Notes: generated by a model not told the origin, from the sequence alone. Positions 22,389 through 50,371 are shown, numbered from the stretch's first letter. The stretch is 64,000 bases of DNA from Candidatus Poribacteria bacterium (GCA_963665285.1 OY762266.1:2676156-2740155), one strand, 5' to 3'. Made by a program: numbers and translations.

Positions 22389-22722
22389 GTAGGGGCGAGG
22401 TCTCCTCGCCCATTGTCCAACGCGGGTTGGGAGCCTTAAATCATACGGATTGAGTTGATTGTCCCGATTTCCTGGTCTCGACTTGTCGGACATCGGGATG
22501 TTCCCCGATGGAATCGGGACAGGCGGAACAGCATAGGTCGAGATTCATATCTCGATTCCGAAACGCTGATTTTGGAAAATCGACCCAATGTAGGGGCAGG
22601 TCTTATGCCTGCCCAAAATACAGACAGATTCCCGATTGCAGGGTAACCACAAGGGTTACCCCTACGGAAGTACGCAATCGTCTCTGATGTCCGAGCAGAG
22701 GGTTGGGAGATCCAACCCCTAC
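22389..22722. repeat. Cluster of four REP-like GTAG-headed hairpins (BIME-like)
   Basis: GTAGGGGCGAGGTCTCCTCGCCC (22389-22411, +) and GTAGGGGCAGGTCTTATGCCTGCCC (22590-22614, +). In inverted orientation, GGGTAACCACAAGGGTTACCCCTAC (22641-22665) and GGGTTGGGAGATCCAACCCCTAC (22700-22722). A headed but poorly paired copy lies at 22845. Confidence 0.7.
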
Positions 22723-41917: not shown

Positions 41918-42667
41918 ATGGACAACCTCAAAAACGGTAAAGCACCGGTAGCTCTGCTAAAAGACAGACAGATATTGCCCCTTACACAAGAACAGGCATG
42001 GGCAGCATCGCTTTGGGACAAAAAAGACAAAGAGGAAATCGCCTCCGCCATCGGCGTACCACCTGAAATCCTTACTGAGTGGGAGAACCAACCGCTTTTT
42101 ATAGCGGAGATAGCCGATCTCAGCGCGGAGTTCGAGGCGGAAATCGAAGAAAAACAGGCCGCCGCACTCGTCTTTGACAATTCCTCGTATGCCGCAGCCG
42201 AAGCCACAATTGGGTTGGAAGAAGGCACAATAATGGAGTGGGCACAAGACGAGGAAAGCCTGTTTAATGAACTACTCGATCAGATGAAACGTGAAGTCGC
42301 AAACCAAATAAAGAAAGATCCCAATCCCGAAGGCTTGAAAAATCCCGATCCCGAAGACTTGAATGAAGATCAGATACGAGCTATACCGCTCATTATCGAA
42401 GGTAAAACCGATGCCCAAGTCGGCGAGGCAATCGGCAAAAGCAGAGAAACAATCAACCGATGGCGCAACCAAAACAAAGATTTTATCAAGGAATTAAAAA
42501 AAGCCCGTGATGCGTATCTCGATTCTCAAATCATCGCACTTTCCGCAACCGCGCGAAAGGCAATCACCGTCCTAGAGAATCTGCTCGATAGTGAAGACGA
42601 AAAAATCAGGACGCGAGTCGCAATCCATCTACTCAGGGCAACAGCATTACCACAACGAATAAAGTGA
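41918..42667 (+). CDS. Multi-HTH protein, phage terminase small subunit-like
   Basis: GAGGAG SD. Three homeodomain-like HTH units (e.g. IIEGKTDAQVGEAIGKSRETINRWRNQNKDF) and a helical tail LENLLDSEDEKIRTRVAIHLL. Confidence 0.45.
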   Translation: MDNLKNGKAPVALLKDRQILPLTQEQAWAASLWDKKDKEEIASAIGVPPEILTEWENQPLFIAEIADLSAEFEAEIEEKQAAALVFDNSSYAAAEATIGLEEGTIMEWAQDEESLFNELLDQMKREVANQIKKDPNPEGLKNPDPEDLNEDQIRAIPLIIEGKTDAQVGEAIGKSRETINRWRNQNKDFIKELKKARDAYLDSQIIALSATARKAITVLENLLDSEDEKIRTRVAIHLLRATALPQRIK

Positions 42668-43055: not shown

Positions 43056-43484
43056 ATGAGACAGATGATAAAATACCGCGATTATCTAATCGAAGAACTT
43101 TCTGACCCCGAGGAGGCAACCGTCTATCTCCAAACCTCTCAAGAAGAATACCAGAAAGACGGTGACACCGTCGCATTTTTGTTAGCACTGCAAAGCATCG
43201 CTGAAGCGCAAGTGGAGAACAACGAACTCCTTTCCCAAGTCTATCTATTGAGTGGCAGAGTCCACCACTCACGAGGGGAGCATGACTGGGCGATTGAAGA
43301 CTACGACACAGTGATAAAACTGGCTAATACAGTGATAGAAACGGATCCCAATAATGTTGAAGCCTATATCCGTCGTGGCATAGCTTGCTGCCACAAAGGT
43401 GAGCATGACCGTGCTATTGGAGACCTTACCAAAGCGATAGAATTGAAACCCAATTATGCCGGCCCTATTACGATTGAGGTGTAG
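43056..43484 (+). CDS. Truncated paralog of the 48422 TPR protein (antidote-like N-domain plus about 2 TPRs)
   Basis: MRQMIKYRDYLIEELSDPEEATVYLQ...FLLALQSIAEAQ resembles the N-terminal part of HigA-type addiction-module antidote proteins. About 330 nt are roughly 80-85% identical by eye to 48590-48910. It ends after two TPR units. Confidence 0.6.
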   Translation: MRQMIKYRDYLIEELSDPEEATVYLQTSQEEYQKDGDTVAFLLALQSIAEAQVENNELLSQVYLLSGRVHHSRGEHDWAIEDYDTVIKLANTVIETDPNNVEAYIRRGIACCHKGEHDRAIGDLTKAIELKPNYAGPITIEV

Positions 43485-43535
43485 CTTAAATGTCTCAATG
43501 AGATTATCTTAAAACGGCTCAAGGAAGCAATTCAA

Positions 43536-43679
43536 GTGGCAAGAGAAAGGATCATCAAATACCCACCTAAACGAAGTAGACTCAAAAGAAGTGAGGTTAA
43601 ACGAGTAGCAGAGAGGGTTGTCCATGGCACGCGCGACGGTGGAGAGGCAGAACAGACGCGCCCACCGAAAAGAGGATAA
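43536..43679 (+). pseudogene. Short ORF homologous to the first ~37 codons of the 48422 TPR gene (gene-start relic)
   Basis: VARERIIKYPPKRSRLKRSEVKRVAERVVHGTRDGGE... aligns with MARERIVKDTPKRGKLTERQIQRAVEKVIYSRLGGGE... Its stop lies 3 nt before the XRE ATG. Confidence 0.5.
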
Positions 43680-43682
43680 ATC

Positions 43683-43958
43683 ATGGCAGACTATACCCCC
43701 AGTTCGGGAAACGTTTTTAAGGATTTGGAGCTTCCCTCACCCAATGAAAGGTTGGCAAAAGCGAAACTGGCATATAAGATCAACCGCTTGATTGCCGATC
43801 AGGAAATGATTCAAAAGGACGCTGCGGATTTTTTGGGAATAAGTCAATCGAAAATGACGGCCCTGAGAAACGGTGGATTGAAGAATTTTACCATTGACCA
43901 TCTGGTTTCTCTGCTGGGAAAGCTGGATCCTCATATTGAATTCAGCACCCAAGACTAA
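43683..43958 (+). CDS. XRE-family HTH transcriptional regulator (antitoxin-like)
   Basis: SGNVFKDLELP...KA.LA..I...I.....Q.DAADFLGISQSKMTALRNG.LKNFTIDHLVSLL..L, the classic short XRE/HigA-type protein. AGAGGA SD. Confidence 0.85.
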   Translation: MADYTPSSGNVFKDLELPSPNERLAKAKLAYKINRLIADQEMIQKDAADFLGISQSKMTALRNGGLKNFTIDHLVSLLGKLDPHIEFSTQD

Positions 43959-44058
43959 TTAAACGGAAAATTAATAATCAGATTTTTACCCGTTTCATCG
44001 CCAATGTCGATATTCAAGCACGAAACGCGGATTCTAAAATGCAAGCGAGGAGATAGTT

Positions 44059-45861
44059 GTGGCACTACATTACGAAAATTTGGATGAAAACACACGTTCG
44101 TTTATGTTGAGTGAGGTTGATTTAGACTTATCTCATGAGAAGCTTTATATGAGCCCACGCCTTAATGAGCCCGGAGAGCGAAATTATGTATCTCTTCTTA
44201 AGGAAGCTATAGAACACCATGATGACGCGTGGCTTGCCCAACAATTACGCAGTCACAGTTATATGAAAGAAAACGTACCACGTAAAAAGAAGGGTGATTT
44301 CACAACAGTTAGGGTTCCTAAGAATGCCCCTGATACTCTTAGTGAAGGAGAGTTTAACCGATATTATGCAAGAGGCGTATGTCTTCGTGTAATAGAGGAA
44401 GGCGTGGATCAAGTTGAGGTATGTCCCGGAAAACCAGTAAGTAGACTTCGACCAAAAGCTAAAGCTATCTTGGGAAAAAAGCTGCCTGCTGAAACACTGC
44501 TGAAAGATTTGAGGGAATCTAGCAGTGTGGAGTCCGCTCTTGGTTTGCAACGCGGATTAAATCCAAGCTTAACGGTTCGCATGGAAAGGGTCGAAGGTAT
44601 TACCAAGATAGTGGTGAGCAGTTTCAAGTCACTCGCGGAAAAGTGCAAAATAGACATTCGTCCGCTGACGATTATTGCCGGAGCAAATAGTTCAGGAAAA
44701 TCAAGCATCATGCAGCCGCTCCTGATGCTCAAGCAGACGCTGGAGGCACCGTATGATCCGGGACCGTTGTTGATTGATGGACCAATCGTTCAATTCACAT
44801 TAGCGGAGCAATTTTTATCCAAGTTAAGCGGTAAAAAAGGTGCGGAACGTTTTCAGATCCAGATTGAGACTGGTGAGTCTTATTCGGTGGGGACGACTTT
44901 TGGAAAGGGGCAAAACGGGGTTGAACTTATCGAAATGACAGTAGAAAGAAAGTCATTGGATCTACGCCGGCGTTTTACTTTATATCCTGAAATGCTCCCT
45001 GAAGAAATTAAGTCTTTGGCTGACAAAGATCCGAGGTTTAAGGATTTGGGCGAGGATTACGATGTCGTGAGGCGCTCACATTGTTTTTTGGAGTTAGAGT
45101 CTCAAGATGGTCATAAGGGCTTAAACTTTACCCATGAACTTGCGTTCCATATCGTTAGCAGCATTCACCTTCCCGGGTTACGAGGCAATCCAGAACGCAC
45201 ATACAAACTAACCAGCACTGGTCCCCGATATCCTGGCACATTTGAAAACTACGCTGCGAATATCATTCACGAGTGGCAGGAAACCGCAGATAAACGTCTG
45301 AAAACATTAGCTGATGGCCTTCATACACTTGGACTGACAGGGCAGGTCGGCACCAAAAAAATCGGCGACACCCGCATCGAACTTCAAGTCGGTCGCCTTC
45401 CCGGGGATAGAACTAGCACAAAAGATATGGTCAGCATCGCCGATGTGGGATTCGGTGTGTCCCAAGTCTTGCCTGTTTTAGTTGCTCTGATCGTCGCGAA
45501 GTCGGGACAATTGGTCTATCTCGAACAGCCGGAGCTGCACCTCCATCCCCGCGCACAGGTCGCGTTGGCGCAAGAATTGGCAGCTGCGGCGAAACGTGGT
45601 GTCCGTGTTGTCGCGGAAACGCACAGTTCGCTGCTAATTCGGGCAATTCAAGCACTTATTGCCGAGAGAAACCTCCCGCCAGCGTTGGTGAGGTTGCATT
45701 GGTTCAGCCGAGATGACAGCGGGGCTACCGAAATCGTCCCCGCTGAATTAGACGAAGTGGGGGCTTATGGGGACTGGCCAGCAGATTTTGATGATGTTGA
45801 CTTGAAGGCACAGAGCCGTTATATAAAGGCATCTCGATTGCGTCTGGCTGAAAGGGCATGA
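44059..45861 (+). CDS. ABC/SMC-like AAA ATPase (AAA_21/DUF3696-like) with an unrecognised ~190-aa N-terminal domain
   Basis: GTG start with a GAGGAG SD. Walker A IIAGANSSGKSS, Walker B LVYLEQPELHLHP and H-loop AETHS. The C-terminal tail LHWFSRDDSG...GDWPADFDDV resembles DUF3696. Confidence 0.75.
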   Translation: MALHYENLDENTRSFMLSEVDLDLSHEKLYMSPRLNEPGERNYVSLLKEAIEHHDDAWLAQQLRSHSYMKENVPRKKKGDFTTVRVPKNAPDTLSEGEFNRYYARGVCLRVIEEGVDQVEVCPGKPVSRLRPKAKAILGKKLPAETLLKDLRESSSVESALGLQRGLNPSLTVRMERVEGITKIVVSSFKSLAEKCKIDIRPLTIIAGANSSGKSSIMQPLLMLKQTLEAPYDPGPLLIDGPIVQFTLAEQFLSKLSGKKGAERFQIQIETGESYSVGTTFGKGQNGVELIEMTVERKSLDLRRRFTLYPEMLPEEIKSLADKDPRFKDLGEDYDVVRRSHCFLELESQDGHKGLNFTHELAFHIVSSIHLPGLRGNPERTYKLTSTGPRYPGTFENYAANIIHEWQETADKRLKTLADGLHTLGLTGQVGTKKIGDTRIELQVGRLPGDRTSTKDMVSIADVGFGVSQVLPVLVALIVAKSGQLVYLEQPELHLHPRAQVALAQELAAAAKRGVRVVAETHSSLLIRAIQALIAERNLPPALVRLHWFSRDDSGATEIVPAELDEVGAYGDWPADFDDVDLKAQSRYIKASRLRLAERA

Positions 45862-45862
45862 T

Positions 45863-46408
45863 ATGCAGTCAAGCAATTCCAAGCAGCTCGTTGTGGATGC
45901 ATCAGTTGCCGGTGCTGCCGGTGGCGAAGGGGCAACGGCTTTAGTATCAATCAACTGCACGGAATTTCTCTTAATTTTTTGGGACAAATGTCTGCATCAC
46001 GTCGTGATGACACCAGAACTTTACAAGGAATGGGATGAACATCAATCGGACTTTGCTGCTAGATGGCTGGCATCAATGATTTCCACAGGGAGATATTGTG
46101 AGGTCGAATCTTCTGAGAACCAAGTGTTGTGGACCAAAATCGAAGACGCAGCAGAGCAAGAAAATCAGATTCCAGTAATGCGGAAGGATTTTCACCTTCT
46201 TGAAGCAGCACGGATAAGTGACCAGACGATCATTTCGCTTGAAAAAAGGGTCCGGCGGCATTTCGCCTATGCCGCTCAGCATGTTGATGAAATCCAAAAC
46301 ATTGTTTGGGTGAATCCTAAAAAAGAAAAAGAAGAACCACTTGTTTGGCTTCAAAACGGTGCACCACCGGAAGATCATCGTAGGCTTCGCGCTTGGCGGA
46401 TTGTTTAG
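45863..46408 (+). CDS. PIN-like domain protein (tentative nuclease)
   Basis: The ATG is 1 nt after the ATPase stop. N-terminal LVVDASVA and DFHLLEAARISDQTIISLE resemble the first and last acidic-residue strands of PIN domains. The assignment is tentative. Confidence 0.4.
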   Translation: MQSSNSKQLVVDASVAGAAGGEGATALVSINCTEFLLIFWDKCLHHVVMTPELYKEWDEHQSDFAARWLASMISTGRYCEVESSENQVLWTKIEDAAEQENQIPVMRKDFHLLEAARISDQTIISLEKRVRRHFAYAAQHVDEIQNIVWVNPKKEKEEPLVWLQNGAPPEDHRRLRAWRIV

Positions 46409-46438
46409 TTCGACGCAGCATCTACATGAGACTCGGAA

Positions 46439-47077
46439 GTGACGCATCCAATTGAACGTATCACACAAAGGGATCCCAATTACCCAGCGCAGTTGCGAGG
46501 GTATTTGAAAGCAGAAGCCCCAGAAACTATTTGGGCGCGGGGAAATACCGCCCTATTGACGGATCGAGGTGCCAACTTAAACGGAGACATTTGGGCACTT
46601 TTCTGTTCTAGCAGATGTCCCGGTCAGATTATTTTGAAAGCGCATGAATTGGCTCAACAATTTCGGGAATCAAGAACACCTACCATCGGAGGGTATCATT
46701 CGCCGGTTGAAAAGGAATGTCTTCGCGTCCTGCTGCGCGGTTCACAACCGATTATCCTATGTCCCGCTCGGAGTATCGAAAATATGCGGCTGAGTCCAGC
46801 GTGGAAAGGGGGGTTAGCGGAAGGGCGTCTGTTACTCCTGTCTATCTTCGACAGCAAGCATCGGCGATCGACCGCAGCATTGGCGAACCAACGCAACGTA
46901 TTTGTCGCGGCACTTGCGGACAAGATATGTATCGCCCATGCCTCGGAGGGTAGCAAGACGCTGCAATTCGCACAGCAGGTATCGGAATGGGGCAAACCTC
47001 TTTTCACCTTTGACACCCCGGCAAACAGATCGCTTTTTCAATGCGGGGCGCAGCGGATAGAGGATGCTTGTACCTGA
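46439..47077 (+). CDS. Stand-alone DprA-like Rossmann (SLOG superfamily) protein
   Basis: DPNYPAQL...PETIWARGN..LL, then CSSRCPG, IGGYHSPVEKECLRVLL, QPIILCPARSI, ANQRNVFVAALADKICIAHASEGSKTL and GKPLFTF follow the DprA core order. It lacks the DprA SAM and DML1-like domains. GTG is the only in-frame start. Confidence 0.65.
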   Translation: MTHPIERITQRDPNYPAQLRGYLKAEAPETIWARGNTALLTDRGANLNGDIWALFCSSRCPGQIILKAHELAQQFRESRTPTIGGYHSPVEKECLRVLLRGSQPIILCPARSIENMRLSPAWKGGLAEGRLLLLSIFDSKHRRSTAALANQRNVFVAALADKICIAHASEGSKTLQFAQQVSEWGKPLFTFDTPANRSLFQCGAQRIEDACT

Positions 47078-47189
47078 AACATATAGAACTTACGCACATG
47101 GTCAAAAAATAGGTTATAATAACGCAAGTTGCTAGAGCGTATTGACATTGGTTCATGTTAAGAAAGCGTGCAACAGCAACCGAATCTTC

Positions 47190-47246
47190 GTAGGGGTTGG
47201 GTCCCCCAACCCTTACGGACTACGGGCGGGGAGACCCCGCCCCTAC
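47190..47246. repeat. Pair of REP-like hairpins
   Basis: GTAGGGGTTGGGTCCCCCAACCCTTAC (47190-47216) and GGGCGGGGAGACCCCGCCCCTAC (47225-47246, inverted). They are embedded between imperfect ~30-nt inverted arms at 47141-47172 and 47264-47294. Confidence 0.7.
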
Positions 47247-47314
47247 GATTTCGATTCGCGTTTTGCACTTTCTTTTTACATGAGCCTTGACATTTATGTG
47301 GAATCTTACTCATA

Positions 47315-47412
47315 AATCGATGCTAATATGGCAGGCCGGTAAACCTTAATCGAAGTTAATATGGCATCAGCAAACCTTAATCGATGCCAATATGGCAGGT
47401 CAGCAAACCGTT
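47315..47412 (+). repeat. Three tandem 31-34-bp direct repeats (iteron-like)
   Basis: AATCGATGCTAATATGGCAGGCCGGTAAACCTT / AATCGAAGTTAATATGGCATCAGCAAACCTT / AATCGATGCCAATATGGCAGGTCAGCAAACCGTT. Confidence 0.8.
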
Positions 47413-47653: not shown

Positions 47654-47752
47654 CTGCGTAAGTCCCATGATTTAAAGAATTTTACGATTGATTATCTGAT
47701 TTCTCTGTTTAGAAGGCTGAATTCAGATTTGAAGAAACTACAGAATGAATGA
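47654..47752 (+). pseudogene. 3' relic of a second XRE-family HTH gene
   Basis: Encodes ...LRKSHDLKNFTIDYLISLFRRLNSDLKKLQNE*, matching LRNGGLKNFTIDHLVSLLGKLDPHIE of the 43683 XRE protein. The upstream HTH part is not recognisable. Confidence 0.55.
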
Positions 47753-47769
47753 AACTGACTTAGGAAATC

Positions 47770-48420
47770 ATGCAATCACCCCACTATAATGACAATGTTT
47801 TTCTCAATTGTCCATTTGATTCAGCGTATAAGCAGTTGTTTGATGCAATGGTGTTTGCCGTACATGATTGTGGTTTTATCGCCCGCTGTGCTCTTGAAGA
47901 AGGAGATGCAAGCCAAGTCCGGATTGATAAAATTTATGACATCATCGCGGACTGTCGTTATGGAATTCATGATATATCAAGAACGGAATTAGATGCAACT
48001 TCAAGTCTCCCTCGATTTAATATGCCTTTGGAATTGGGAGTTTTTCTTGGGGCAAAGAAATTTGGCATAGACGAACAAAAAAGGAAAAACTGCCTTATAC
48101 TGGACAAAGAACAGTACCGGTATCAACAGTTTATCTCAGATATTGCCGGGCAAGATGTTGAGGCGCATAACAACAATCCTGAAGCAATCGTAACAGTCGT
48201 GCGGAATTGGCTCCGTACTGCATCGGAATGTGAAACAATCCCAAGTGGAAGCATCATTTGGGAACATTACCAAGAGTTTATGGGAGATTTGCCTCAACTA
48301 GCTCAAGAATATCAATTAAAGGTTGAAGAACTAATTTTTAATGATTATACTTCGGTGGTTACGAGATGGTTAAGAAATAGACAAATTGCTTATCGCAACC
48401 TAGTTCGAGGAGGGAATTAG
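47770..48420 (+). CDS. TIR-like / nucleoside 2-deoxyribosyltransferase-like Rossmannoid domain protein
   Basis: N-terminal VFLNCPFD....LF.A.VF....CGF, then IHDISR and PRFNMPLELGVFLG. The N(V/M)xxELG plus a buried N-terminal strand recalls the TIR-like (PF10137-type) and NDT-like families. The C-terminal ~70 aa are unassigned. Confidence 0.45.
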   Translation: MQSPHYNDNVFLNCPFDSAYKQLFDAMVFAVHDCGFIARCALEEGDASQVRIDKIYDIIADCRYGIHDISRTELDATSSLPRFNMPLELGVFLGAKKFGIDEQKRKNCLILDKEQYRYQQFISDIAGQDVEAHNNNPEAIVTVVRNWLRTASECETIPSGSIIWEHYQEFMGDLPQLAQEYQLKVEELIFNDYTSVVTRWLRNRQIAYRNLVRGGN

Positions 48421-48421
48421 A

Positions 48422-50371
48422 ATGGCAAGAGAAAGAATCGTCAAAGACACCCCCAAACGAGGAAAACTCACAGAAAGACAAATTCAACGGGCAGTGGAGA
48501 AGGTTATTTATAGTAGACTCGGCGGTGGAGAAGTGGGGCGGACACACCACATCGAAAGACTTGCCGATCCTGAAAATGCGGTTGCCTACCTCCAAAACTC
48601 TCAAGAAGAATACCGAAAAAACGATGACGCGGTCGCATTTCTGTTAGCACTCCAAACCATCGCCGAAGCGCAGGCAGGGAACGACGGACTTGTTTCCCAA
48701 GTCTATTTATTAAGCGGCGACGTTCACCGCTCACGAGAGGAACATGACTTGGCGATTGAAGACTATAGCACCGTGATAAAATTGACTAACACAGTGATAG
48801 AAATGGATCCAAAAAATGTTGAAGCCTATTCCCGCCGTGGCATAGCTTACCATCACAAAGGTGAGTATGAATCTGCCATTGAAAACTTTACCAAAGCGAT
48901 AAAACTAGATCCAAGCATACCCCAACTCTATTTAGCACGAGGCATAACTTACAATCATGAAGGTGAATATGACTCCGCCATTGAGGATGCCACTAAAGCA
49001 TTAGAATTGAAGCTTGATAGTGCCGAGGCCTATAAGCACCGTGGTCTGGCTTACCAGAGCAGAGGTGATTGTGACCGCAGTAAGAGCGATTATGACCGCG
49101 CCATCGCAGACCTTACCAAAGCGATAGACCTAGCCCCTAATGATACCAATGTGTATTGTGGTCGTGGACATGCTTACCAGAGCAGAGGTGATTATGACCG
49201 CAGTAAGAGCGATTATGACCGCGCCATCGCAGACTTTACCAAAGCGATAGACCTAGCCCCTAATGATGCTAGAGCTTATAGCGGTCGCGGTTATGCCCAT
49301 CAAAGCAAAGGCGATTATGACGAGGCCATCAAAGATTGTACAAAAGCAGTAGCACAAGCCCCTAATGATGCTAAAGTTTATAATCATCGCGGAGTTGTCT
49401 ATTATCACAAAGGCGATTATGACGAGGCCATAACAGACTTTGATAGAGCAATACAACTCAACCCTGATTATGCCCAAGCCTATAATAGTCGTGCGGCTAT
49501 CTATTGTGAAAATGGCAAAGTTGATCTTGGCATCCTGGACCTTAATAGGGCGATACAAGTCAACTCGAATTATGCCCAATCCTATAGTAATCGTGGTATG
49601 GCTTACGGGGTCAAAGGCGAGTATGAGCATGCCATTGAAGACTTTACCAAAGTGATAGAATTGAATCCCAATGATGCTGATGCCTATTACAATCGCGGTG
49701 TAGCTTTCAGGATCAAGGGTAAGTATGACCATGCCATCGCAGATTGTACCAAAGCGATAGCACTGAATCCCAATGATGTCGATGTGTACGACCATCGCGG
49801 AGTGATCTACTATTACAAAGGTGAGTATGATTATGCTATTTTAGACTTTACCAAGGCGATAACACTGAATCCCAATTACGTCAACGTCTATTACAACCGT
49901 GGTCTAACTTATGTGTTCAAAGGCGAGTATAACCACGCCATCGCAGACTATACCCAAGCGATACAACTCAAATCAGATTATGCCAATGCTTATTACAATC
50001 GCGGTGTAATTTACTGCAAGAAAAACGAGTATGAATACGCTATTGAGGACTTCACCAAGGTAATAGAATTGAATCCCAATGATGCTGATGCCTATTGCAA
50101 TCGTGGCATAGCTTATAGAGCCAAGGGGGAGGTTAACCGTGCCATCGCAAACTATAATATGGCAATACGTCTAAACCCCGATGATGCGGATGCTTATAGC
50201 AATCGCTGGGAGGCGTCGTCACCCCCGGAAGCACACGAAGAAGCCAAATCAGATCAAGTGATTTCCAGAGACATGGGAAGAGATATTGTCACTTCATTTC
50301 ATAGTGAGTATAGAAACAGCCCAACTGAAAATCTACTAGAAGAGATTACCTTAAAGTCGATGGCCGCGTAG
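48422..50371 (+). CDS. Large TPR-repeat protein with an antidote-like N-terminal region
   Basis: The ATG is 1 nt after the upstream TAG. Residues about 48-95 (LADPENAVAYLQNSQEEY...FLLALQTIAEAQ) resemble the HigA-type antidote N-domain. About 14 TPR units follow (AY..RG.AY...G.YD.AI.DF.KAI.L.PN). Confidence 0.8.
   Translation: MARERIVKDTPKRGKLTERQIQRAVEKVIYSRLGGGEVGRTHHIERLADPENAVAYLQNSQEEYRKNDDAVAFLLALQTIAEAQAGNDGLVSQVYLLSGDVHRSREEHDLAIEDYSTVIKLTNTVIEMDPKNVEAYSRRGIAYHHKGEYESAIENFTKAIKLDPSIPQLYLARGITYNHEGEYDSAIEDATKALELKLDSAEAYKHRGLAYQSRGDCDRSKSDYDRAIADLTKAIDLAPNDTNVYCGRGHAYQSRGDYDRSKSDYDRAIADFTKAIDLAPNDARAYSGRGYAHQSKGDYDEAIKDCTKAVAQAPNDAKVYNHRGVVYYHKGDYDEAITDFDRAIQLNPDYAQAYNSRAAIYCENGKVDLGILDLNRAIQVNSNYAQSYSNRGMAYGVKGEYEHAIEDFTKVIELNPNDADAYYNRGVAFRIKGKYDHAIADCTKAIALNPNDVDVYDHRGVIYYYKGEYDYAILDFTKAITLNPNYVNVYYNRGLTYVFKGEYNHAIADYTQAIQLKSDYANAYYNRGVIYCKKNEYEYAIEDFTKVIELNPNDADAYCNRGIAYRAKGEVNRAIANYNMAIRLNPDDADAYSNRWEASSPPEAHEEAKSDQVISRDMGRDIVTSFHSEYRNSPTENLLEEITLKSMAA
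49049..49267 (+). repeat. Recent internal tandem duplication (123-nt period) within the TPR gene
   Basis: 49049-49144 and 49172-49267 differ at only 2 positions by eye. Both encode AYQSRGD(C/Y)DRSKSDYDRAIAD(L/F)TKAIDLAPND. Confidence 0.8.

Follow-up and report, generated by a model that had tools for sequence, protein, structure and literature searches.

A two-gene ABC ATPase-PIN module, probably of defence function, in a variable genomic island of a Candidatus Poribacteria bacterium

A stretch of 64,000 nucleotides from a Candidatus Poribacteria bacterium (GCA_963665285.1 OY762266.1:2676156-2740155), called the window below, carries between positions 43,683 and 47,077 four co-directional genes. 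A preliminary description made from the sequence alone had proposed that these genes form an undescribed defence system, composed of an XRE regulator, an ABC-type ATPase with an N-terminal extension, a PIN-like protein and a DprA-like protein. All four open reading frames were found at the coordinates given in that description, and the following features were assigned to this part of the window:

43683-43958, plus strand: XRE/HTH_37 regulator, 91 amino acids (HTH_37 of Pfam, 6.5e-18)
43959-44058, plus strand: leader of the ATPase cassette, about 100 nucleotides, which marks its left boundary (alignment of 7 loci with N-extended ATPases)
44059-45861, plus strand: ATPase gene, 600 amino acids, GTG start
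44059-44598, plus strand: N-terminal domain of the ATPase (N-domain), about 180 amino acids, a fusion of a normally stand-alone family of about 177 amino acids (profile family searches)
44599-45861, plus strand: ABC ATPase core and C-terminal tail of the DUF3696/NsnB/HEC-03 group (PADLOC profiles, invariant motifs)
45863-46408, plus strand: p181, a PIN-fold putative nuclease of 181 amino acids, ATG start, invariant partner of the ATPase and probable effector (AlphaFold2 model, Foldseek, conserved acidic residues, synteny)
46439-47077, plus strand: short DprA-like protein of Rossmann/SLOG type, 212 amino acids, GTG start, a facultative downstream neighbour (PF02481)

The ATPase gene has GGAG 8 nucleotides 5' of its GTG, which agrees with the Shine-Dalgarno sequence that had been claimed, and this start is supported because a homologous locus (L020; loci are designated by L numbers) has an ATG aligned with the position of the GTG. 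The ATG of p181 lies 1 nucleotide past the TGA of the ATPase gene and the DprA-like gene starts 30 nucleotides past the p181 stop codon, spacings that had also been given correctly.

Homologous loci were surveyed by tblastn and hidden Markov model searches on every fetched locus, which gave 22 ATPase-bearing loci from about 7 lineages, 14 of these loci being Poribacterial. A homologue of p181 is encoded directly 3' of the ATPase core in all 22. Over all loci the gap between both genes varies from -4 to 35 nucleotides, being exactly 1 nucleotide in 12 of the 14 Poribacterial ones; with such close spacing the two genes are possibly translationally coupled. The pair was found in Poribacteria, Chloroflexota, Chthonomonadaceae, Acidobacteriota, UBP9, Bryobacter, and Burkholderiales. 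The loci nearest to that of the window belong to Candidatus Poribacteria, sponge symbionts, and in the other phyla the pair either has only housekeeping genes around it or adjoins SNF2/PLD helicases together with a further AAA_21 ATPase. A plasmid search with p181 and a phage search with the ATPase gave no match, and a scan for promoters and terminators found 11 versus 6.5±2.6 and 8 versus 4.7±2.2 in shuffled sequence, which is not above background. Synteny in other genomes, a check named in the preliminary description, therefore holds for the ATPase and the PIN protein but not for the DprA-like gene, which is intact in 4 of the 22 loci; only the ATPase and the PIN protein are invariant, XRE and the DprA-like gene are facultative, and the four-gene system as proposed is not upheld. 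The functional unit is probably the two-gene module at 44059-46408, formed by an ABC ATPase and a small PIN-fold nuclease, with a role in defence that is suggested by analogy with known systems.

The ABC core that had been recognized in the ATPase is borne out by matches to AAA_21 (3e-25) and AAA_15 (5.8e-22) of Pfam over residues 181-527 and by a Walker A motif (G208-ANSSGKSS), a Walker B motif (L485-VYLEQPE), and an H-loop (ETH522S). Across phyla the motifs GANSSGKS, DVGxGVSQ, [LI]EQPExHLH, and ETHS and a DWPxDFDD tail are essentially invariant. When compared with PADLOC models, the ATPase matched NsnB best (4e-51, 172.8 bits, residues 181-579 on positions 2-333 of 345, that is, the whole model), followed by the ATPase model of Hma-embedded candidate 03 (HEC-03; 1.2e-37, 128 bits, in two stretches), PDC-M55A (1.6e-31), AriA (4e-24), and GajA (about 1e-9), whereas p181 matched no PADLOC model. 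The tail had been described as DUF3696-like, and this label stands in part: the Pfam match to DUF3696 is below threshold (E 0.056, 14.1 bits, cutoff 22), but the nearest plasmid homologues, with about 27% identity, are annotated as 'DUF3696 domain-containing protein'.

For p181, which has no match in Pfam or NCBIfam, the label PIN-like had been a guess from sequence, and the fold now confirms it. An AlphaFold2 model built from 29 homologues (pLDDT, the predicted score in the local distance difference test, 83.3; predicted template modelling score (pTM) 0.81) was compared by Foldseek with PDB structures, and the top matches were all PIN domains (VapC toxins, Nob1, HARP RNase P, Nmd4, PAE0151), the best being 7vwo_A (E 9e-4, TM 0.52/0.63). 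A nuclease-like fold of the 45863 product, which had been named as a further check, was thus found. The model gave no match at E<=0.001 in a viral structure library, and the family of 29 members matched none of the PADLOC models, NsnC included. The canonical acidic positions of PIN domains are occupied by D12 past strand 1, E56, D109, and E127 past strand 4; D120 is likewise invariant, and all five are kept in 7 distant loci from other lineages. Among the closest 120 homologues, E56 is present in 120, D109 in 119, and an Asp or Glu at position 127 in 120. Judged by these residues, p181 is predicted to be an active-type PIN protein, unlike the catalytically dead 'inPIN' of Menshen NsnC, and its model shows one PIN domain without a further effector domain.

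The combination of an ABC ATPase with a PIN protein is the architecture of HEC-03, in which an ABC ATPase and a VapC-like PIN protein confer phage protection on E. coli, neither gene being dispensable (Payne et al., bioRxiv 10.1101/2024.01.29.577857). Two bona fide HEC-03 loci were recovered from conjugative plasmids of Aeromonas and Rhodococcus (L035, L036), with ATPases scoring 445 and 367 bits over their full length on the HEC-03 ATPase model and PIN proteins matching the HEC-03 PIN model at about 1e-23. The module of the window shares with them the order and sizes of the two genes, an ATPase followed by a PIN protein of 169-177 amino acids in HEC-03, the genes overlapping in L035 and L036 and being separated by 1 nucleotide in the window. 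The window differs by an N-terminal fusion of 180 amino acids, its sister loci by TPR modules, and the third gene encodes an RNA ligase in both plasmid loci but a DprA-like protein in the window. The term 'undescribed' can therefore not be kept for the architecture, which has already been validated, and the ATPase of the window is NsnB/HEC-03-like; yet the pair of the window is a distinct clade that is missed by the PADLOC models. As a side observation, in L035 (3947-6575) and L036 (3992-6554), which belong to two phyla, a gene for an 'RNA ligase family protein' lies immediately 3' of the PIN gene, and RNA ligase may be a conserved third HEC-03 gene beyond the published two-gene definition. 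Its presence in the same downstream slot of both loci hints, speculatively, at a general accessory position.

The first 190 or so residues of the ATPase had been said to resemble nothing recognizable, and indeed residues 1-180, the N-domain, gave no match in Pfam, NCBIfam, PADLOC, or the sequences of the PDB; its function is probably sensory or that of an adaptor. About 25 Poribacteria homologues of the ATPase have about 600 amino acids; among the other matches listed, most have about 430 amino acids and lack the extension, and a few of 854-868 amino acids carry an N-terminal TPR array. The N-domain itself belongs to a family of 2,864 proteins in 991 clusters at 50% identity, distributed over many phyla, and among the matches listed nearly all are stand-alone proteins of about 175-180 amino acids, those named by their source being called 'hypothetical protein'. 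Nitrilase matches in the N-domain profile search were rejected, as they stemmed from one aligned sequence that carries an unrelated extension at its N-terminus. Because the family otherwise stands alone and the sister ATPases are bare or TPR-bearing, the N-terminal extension is best understood as a recruited domain, alternative to TPR. The family was not found in the non-Poribacteria ATPase-PIN loci.

Three further features of the window, two of them relics, concern these modules and the XRE gene:

43056-43645, plus strand: TPR relics, a TPR fragment of 142 amino acids and a fragment of the 5' end of a TPR gene (repeat matches to 48405-48904)
47672-47722, plus strand: relic of the 3' end of a second XRE gene, 5' of the gene p216 (80% identical to 43878-43928)
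48422-50371, plus strand: TPR649, a full-length TPR protein of 649 amino acids, homologous to the TPR module beside or fused to sister ATPases

Positions 43124-43442 correspond to 48586-48904 with 82% identity and positions 43519-43645 to 48405-48531 with 71% identity, and the same TPR fragment lies 5' of XRE in L021 and L024. In the window TPR649 is followed directly by an ADH gene, with no ATPase-PIN pair behind it. In L003/L004 a separate gene, TPR619, is located directly 5' of ATPase434-PIN177; the TPR-fused ATPases P0051 and P0114 share their N-terminus with TPR649, and their TPR array is homologous both to TPR649 and to the TPR fragment of the window; and in L033/L034 a TPR-ATPase fusion of 868 amino acids is followed 1 nucleotide downstream by the PIN gene. 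The same ATPase-PIN chassis thus occurs with no N-terminal module, with an adjacent TPR protein, with a fused TPR array, or with the N-domain, and the TPR relics together with the unaccompanied TPR649 point to repeated recombination between cassette variants.

Several observations on these modules were made in individual loci. A stand-alone N-domain gene of 179 amino acids, 71% identical to the N-terminus of the window ATPase, is present in L014 (10001-12199), where a protein of 544 amino acids is encoded 25 nucleotides 3' of it. The latter has no significant Pfam match and its C-terminal D...ELK resembles PD-(D/E)xK nucleases, so that the adaptor there seems to work with another effector. In L009 (9362-11257, Chthonomonadaceae) the first in-frame start adds a different N-terminal region of about 214 amino acids without a Pfam match, which may be another independent N-terminal recruitment, the start codon being putative. 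In L003/L004 (3527-4118) and L033/L034 (5455-6004) a small open reading frame and a Gp49/HigB-like gene (112 amino acids) lie directly 5' of the TPR or TPR-ATPase gene and overlap its start; this pair is toxin-antitoxin-like and is embedded in the operon of the system in several genomes.

It might be argued that the four genes are nevertheless indispensable parts of one system, with XRE as the regulator, the N-extended ATPase as the sensor, the PIN protein as the executor and the DprA-like SLOG protein as the sensor of a ligand or as a partner. The order TPR fragment, XRE, N-extended ATPase, PIN, and DprA-like gene does recur in L024 with identical spacings (100 and 30 nucleotides) and in L021 with two inserted genes, the DprA-like copies beside the pair are 90-92% identical to that of the window compared with about 73% for the ATPases, and the RNA ligase gene of the HEC-03 plasmid loci might mean that an accessory slot is general. 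However, an XRE gene lies 5' of the N-extended ATPase in 5 of 9 loci (window, L020, L021, L022, L024), at a distance of 100 nucleotides in the window, L020, and L024 and of 236 nucleotides in L021/22. No XRE gene precedes the ATPase in L001, L002, L023, or any locus whose ATPase lacks the N-extension, and a member of this XRE family (71-79% identity) is instead found in L003-L005, 18 nucleotides 5' of p216, a gene for 216 amino acids. The DprA-like gene follows the PIN gene directly in the window, L024, and L006 and comes after two inserted genes in L021; in L001 it is an internally deleted relic and it is absent in the remaining ATPase-bearing loci (L002-L005, L007-L013, L020, L023, L033/34). 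Conversely, L014-L016 have it behind a Schlafen/AlbA_2 gene, in surroundings that contain neither the ATPase core nor a PIN gene. Against this evidence an obligate system of four components appears improbable.

The left boundary of the cassette leads to the same view of XRE. Of the 7 aligned loci with N-extended ATPases, 6 have the complete leader, among them L002, L021, and L023, which have no XRE directly upstream, and L001 retains only its last 35 nucleotides or so. Homology with the XRE-bearing loci starts directly past the XRE stop codon. As the leader is conserved without XRE and homology breaks exactly at the XRE stop codon, XRE abuts the cassette boundary, which is a recombination border. 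XRE is therefore a facultative upstream neighbour outside the conserved unit, possibly its regulator. In the leaders of the window, L002, L020, L021, L023, and L024 an inverted repeat, CGTTTCG...CGAAACG, is found with its halves about 25 nucleotides apart, and it could be an operator; a structured leader RNA was considered and rejected, as the covariation term was about 0.

Regarding p216, the gene of the window is located at 47770-48420 and its XRE has decayed, and the XRE and p216 pair is intact in L003-L005 (L003/L004 2582-3525) with the 18-nucleotide gap. Its product is 86% identical to that of the window in L003/L004 and 63% identical in L005, and no match to p216 was obtained in Pfam, NCBIfam, or PADLOC. 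Together, XRE and p216 may make up a two-gene module of their own within the island.

The labels given to the outer two genes agree with the profile searches, HTH_37 in the case of XRE and PF02481 (4.7e-10, 39.4 bits, cutoff 29.6) in that of the DprA-like protein, where the match covers the Rossmann-like domain only. A bona fide DprA/Smf protein is ruled out by the score of 32.7 bits against a cutoff of 191 for TIGR00732 and by the single-domain architecture of 212 amino acids. Over the DprA Rossmann-like domain the protein also matches PsyrA (8e-18) and ShosA (5.5e-6), in which it resembles the systems PsyrTA and ShosTA, but it has half the length of PsyrA and is loosely linked to the ATPase-PIN pair, and no PsyrT (RecQ-like) or ShosT (phosphoribosyltransferase) partner was found among the six window proteins scanned.

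How the two-gene module might work can be proposed if HEC-03, PARIS, and Septu, together with the NsnB4-NsnC2 complex as predicted, are taken as analogues. An oligomer of the ATPase would probably keep the PIN protein inactive, likely via the conserved C-terminal DWPxDFDD tail. A signal sensed via the N-domain, TPR or inserts of the ATPase would change the nucleotide state, and on sensing of an invader the PIN protein would be released or activated and would cleave RNA (tRNA, rRNA or mRNA), leading to arrest of the infected cell and aborted infection. The N-domain, recruited from a stand-alone family, and TPR would be alternative sensor or adaptor modules, and XRE, where present, may repress transcription of the operon. 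That the locus encodes a defence-type module built from an ABC ATPase and a PIN-like nuclease, as had been proposed, is very probable.

Several results weigh against this interpretation. With HEC-03 as the nearest validated architecture, it must be noted that the ATPase of the window scores 128 bits versus 367-445 for true members, with about 27% identity to the plasmid HEC-03 ATPases, and is thus a relative that falls outside the core family, and that p181 has no detectable sequence similarity to the HEC-03 PIN protein: 29 members of the p181 family did not match the HEC-03 PIN profile even at E<=10, and hhalign of p181 with two real HEC-03 PIN proteins gave a probability of <1%. The Walker B motif reads E-Q in every member of the ATPase family, and because of this ATP hydrolysis may be slow or absent. 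For the N-domain, the AlphaFold2 model (18 sequences of low diversity) reached a pLDDT of 54.5, too poor for a fold search, and the stand-alone N-domain genes had no fixed partner in the neighbourhoods examined, which look mobile or defence-like. Finally, position 12 of p181 (45896-45898) is Asn in 96 and Asp in 24 of the closest 120 homologues; the window copy and those of all distant phyla have Asp. The PDB matches of the p181 model include 5ed0, the D7N mutant of Shigella VapC, and the D7N substitution inactivates VapC. It follows from the prevalence of Asn at this position that many Poribacteria copies of p181, other than that of the window, may carry an attenuated nuclease.

The same polymorphism, D12N, resembles the attenuation of a toxin, and it might thus be taken to favour a toxin-antitoxin-like addiction module, in which a PIN toxin restrained by the ATPase stabilizes the island and has no part in phage defence. 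PIN/VapC proteins are classical toxins of toxin-antitoxin systems, VapC toxins are among the top structural matches of p181, and the island also bears HigB/Gp49-like and VapC-like toxin-antitoxin genes. The partner, however, is an ABC ATPase of at least about 430 amino acids with strictly conserved nucleotide-binding motifs rather than a small and labile antitoxin; HEC-03, its structural analogue, provides phage defence for which both genes are needed, and the swapping of sensor-like N-terminal modules fits immune sensing better. An addiction module is therefore considered unlikely, and a defence role of the ATPase-PIN module remains the preferred interpretation.

Menshen was also compared in view of the NsnB match. 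This system consists of NsnA-NsnB-NsnC (Millman 2022; PMC12065111), where NsnA is a ParB-DUF262 protein with ParBDB and NsnC combines an inactive PIN domain with a C-terminal nuclease effector; NsnB has an EN Walker B and a GxG signature (Li et al. NAR 2025, PMC12065111), and in the predicted NsnB4-NsnC2 complex NsnC is clamped by the ATPase tails (PMC12065111). The ATPase of the window resembles NsnB in its best PADLOC match, in a non-DE Walker B (EQ in the window, EN in NsnB), in a GxG signature and, below the Pfam threshold, in a DUF3696-type tail, and a PIN-like protein is encoded directly downstream of it, as is NsnC. In contrast to NsnC, p181 keeps the catalytic residues and lacks a C-terminal effector domain, and the role of the sensor has apparently been shifted to the N-terminal fusions of the ATPase, N-domain or TPR. 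On the NsnB model genuine HEC-03 ATPases reach 198.6 bits and the window ATPase 172.8 bits, and because the former score higher, the NsnB match of the window indicates kinship at the superfamily level only. That the locus is a Menshen system which lost or replaced its NsnA sensor is thus, in spite of the shared Walker B, signature and gene order, very unlikely, all the more as Pfam lists and scans revealed no ParB-DUF262 gene in the 22 ATPase-bearing loci. The published Menshen survey would not have found the clade of the window because it was seeded from DUF262.

With PARIS (AriA/AriB), Septu (PtuA/PtuB), and Gabija (GajA), cited in the preliminary description as examples of similar logic, the module shares the control of a nuclease effector by an ABC ATPase oligomer, which in the window is proposed by analogy; it differs in that the effector is a PIN protein and not Toprim or HNH, and in that the ATPase belongs to another clade and its AriA and GajA matches are much weaker. 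The PIN systems DS-3 and DS-5 of DefensePredictor were discarded as they have different architectures.

The module lies in a variable island, and the relics, REP elements and duplicated TPR fragments that had been reported for it are all real. GC content lies between 0.40 and 0.46 at 41-45 kb and 47-50 kb and between 0.49 and 0.51 at 45-47 kb; the kilobases adjoining on either side have 0.51-0.57. The left flank is formed by genes for an Ald_Xan_dh-type protein (706 amino acids) and a FAD_binding_5 protein (324 amino acids), and the right flank by ADH (362 amino acids), PhyH, and GHL10 (538 amino acids) genes. As the same flanks bracket L001, L003-L005, L020, and L033/L034 and the genes between them differ each time, this chromosomal site is a hotspot whose variable cargo is largely of defence type. 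MmeI-like methyltransferases, PLD-SNF2 helicases, SLFN/AlbA_2, PIN-TPR-GreABC, and HigB/Gp49-like genes are neighbours in the island across loci, and the ATPase-PIN module would be one cargo of this recombining defence hotspot between the xanthine-dehydrogenase-like and the ADH/PhyH genes.

Further observations were made in these islands. In L001 (1766-5758, minus strand) and L002 (1651-5829, minus strand) giant PIN-TPR-GreABC (PF20698) proteins of 1330-1392 amino acids are encoded divergently, immediately 5' of the N-extended ATPase. In the window, a GC-rich REP-like palindrome at 47188-47248 has a second copy at 22389-22411, 25 kb off, with 0 copies expected by chance, and beside it, in the spacer 3' of the DprA-like gene, three direct repeats of about 26-31 nucleotides (AATCGATGCNAATATGGCA...) are present at 47308-47409. 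The low-GC island has at its left edge a gene (41918-42667) for a protein of 249 amino acids with HTH_Tnp_1_2 and weak terminase-small-subunit-like HTH matches, which may be a remnant of a mobile element.

A broader interpretation can be offered, which we regard as doubtful but worth stating. The N-domain might be a new fold of wide distribution that serves as sensor or adaptor, its family comprising about 2,900 proteins, most of them from solitary genes for about 177 amino acids in surroundings that look mobile or defence-like, and that Poribacteria have plugged into the ATPase-PIN chassis interchangeably with TPR, and the third slot downstream, occupied by a DprA-like gene here and by RNA ligase in HEC-03, might provide a recovery or modulator factor. 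Together these parts would make up a modular family of sensor, ATPase, PIN and accessory components, broader than HEC-03 and parallel to Menshen.

The four-gene picture is thus corrected to a two-gene core, to which XRE and the DprA-like gene are optional additions. The clade itself, the N-domain fusion and the swapping of modules at one hotspot are the new elements. They extend the validated ABC ATPase and PIN architecture of HEC-03, and its Menshen relatives, to a divergent clade unseen by PADLOC profiles, which spans at least 7 lineages and is strongly expanded in the sponge-symbiont Poribacteria. The orphan family of about 177 amino acids obtains a first functional context, and the swapping of modules at one hotspot provides a concrete handle on how such systems acquire their sensors.

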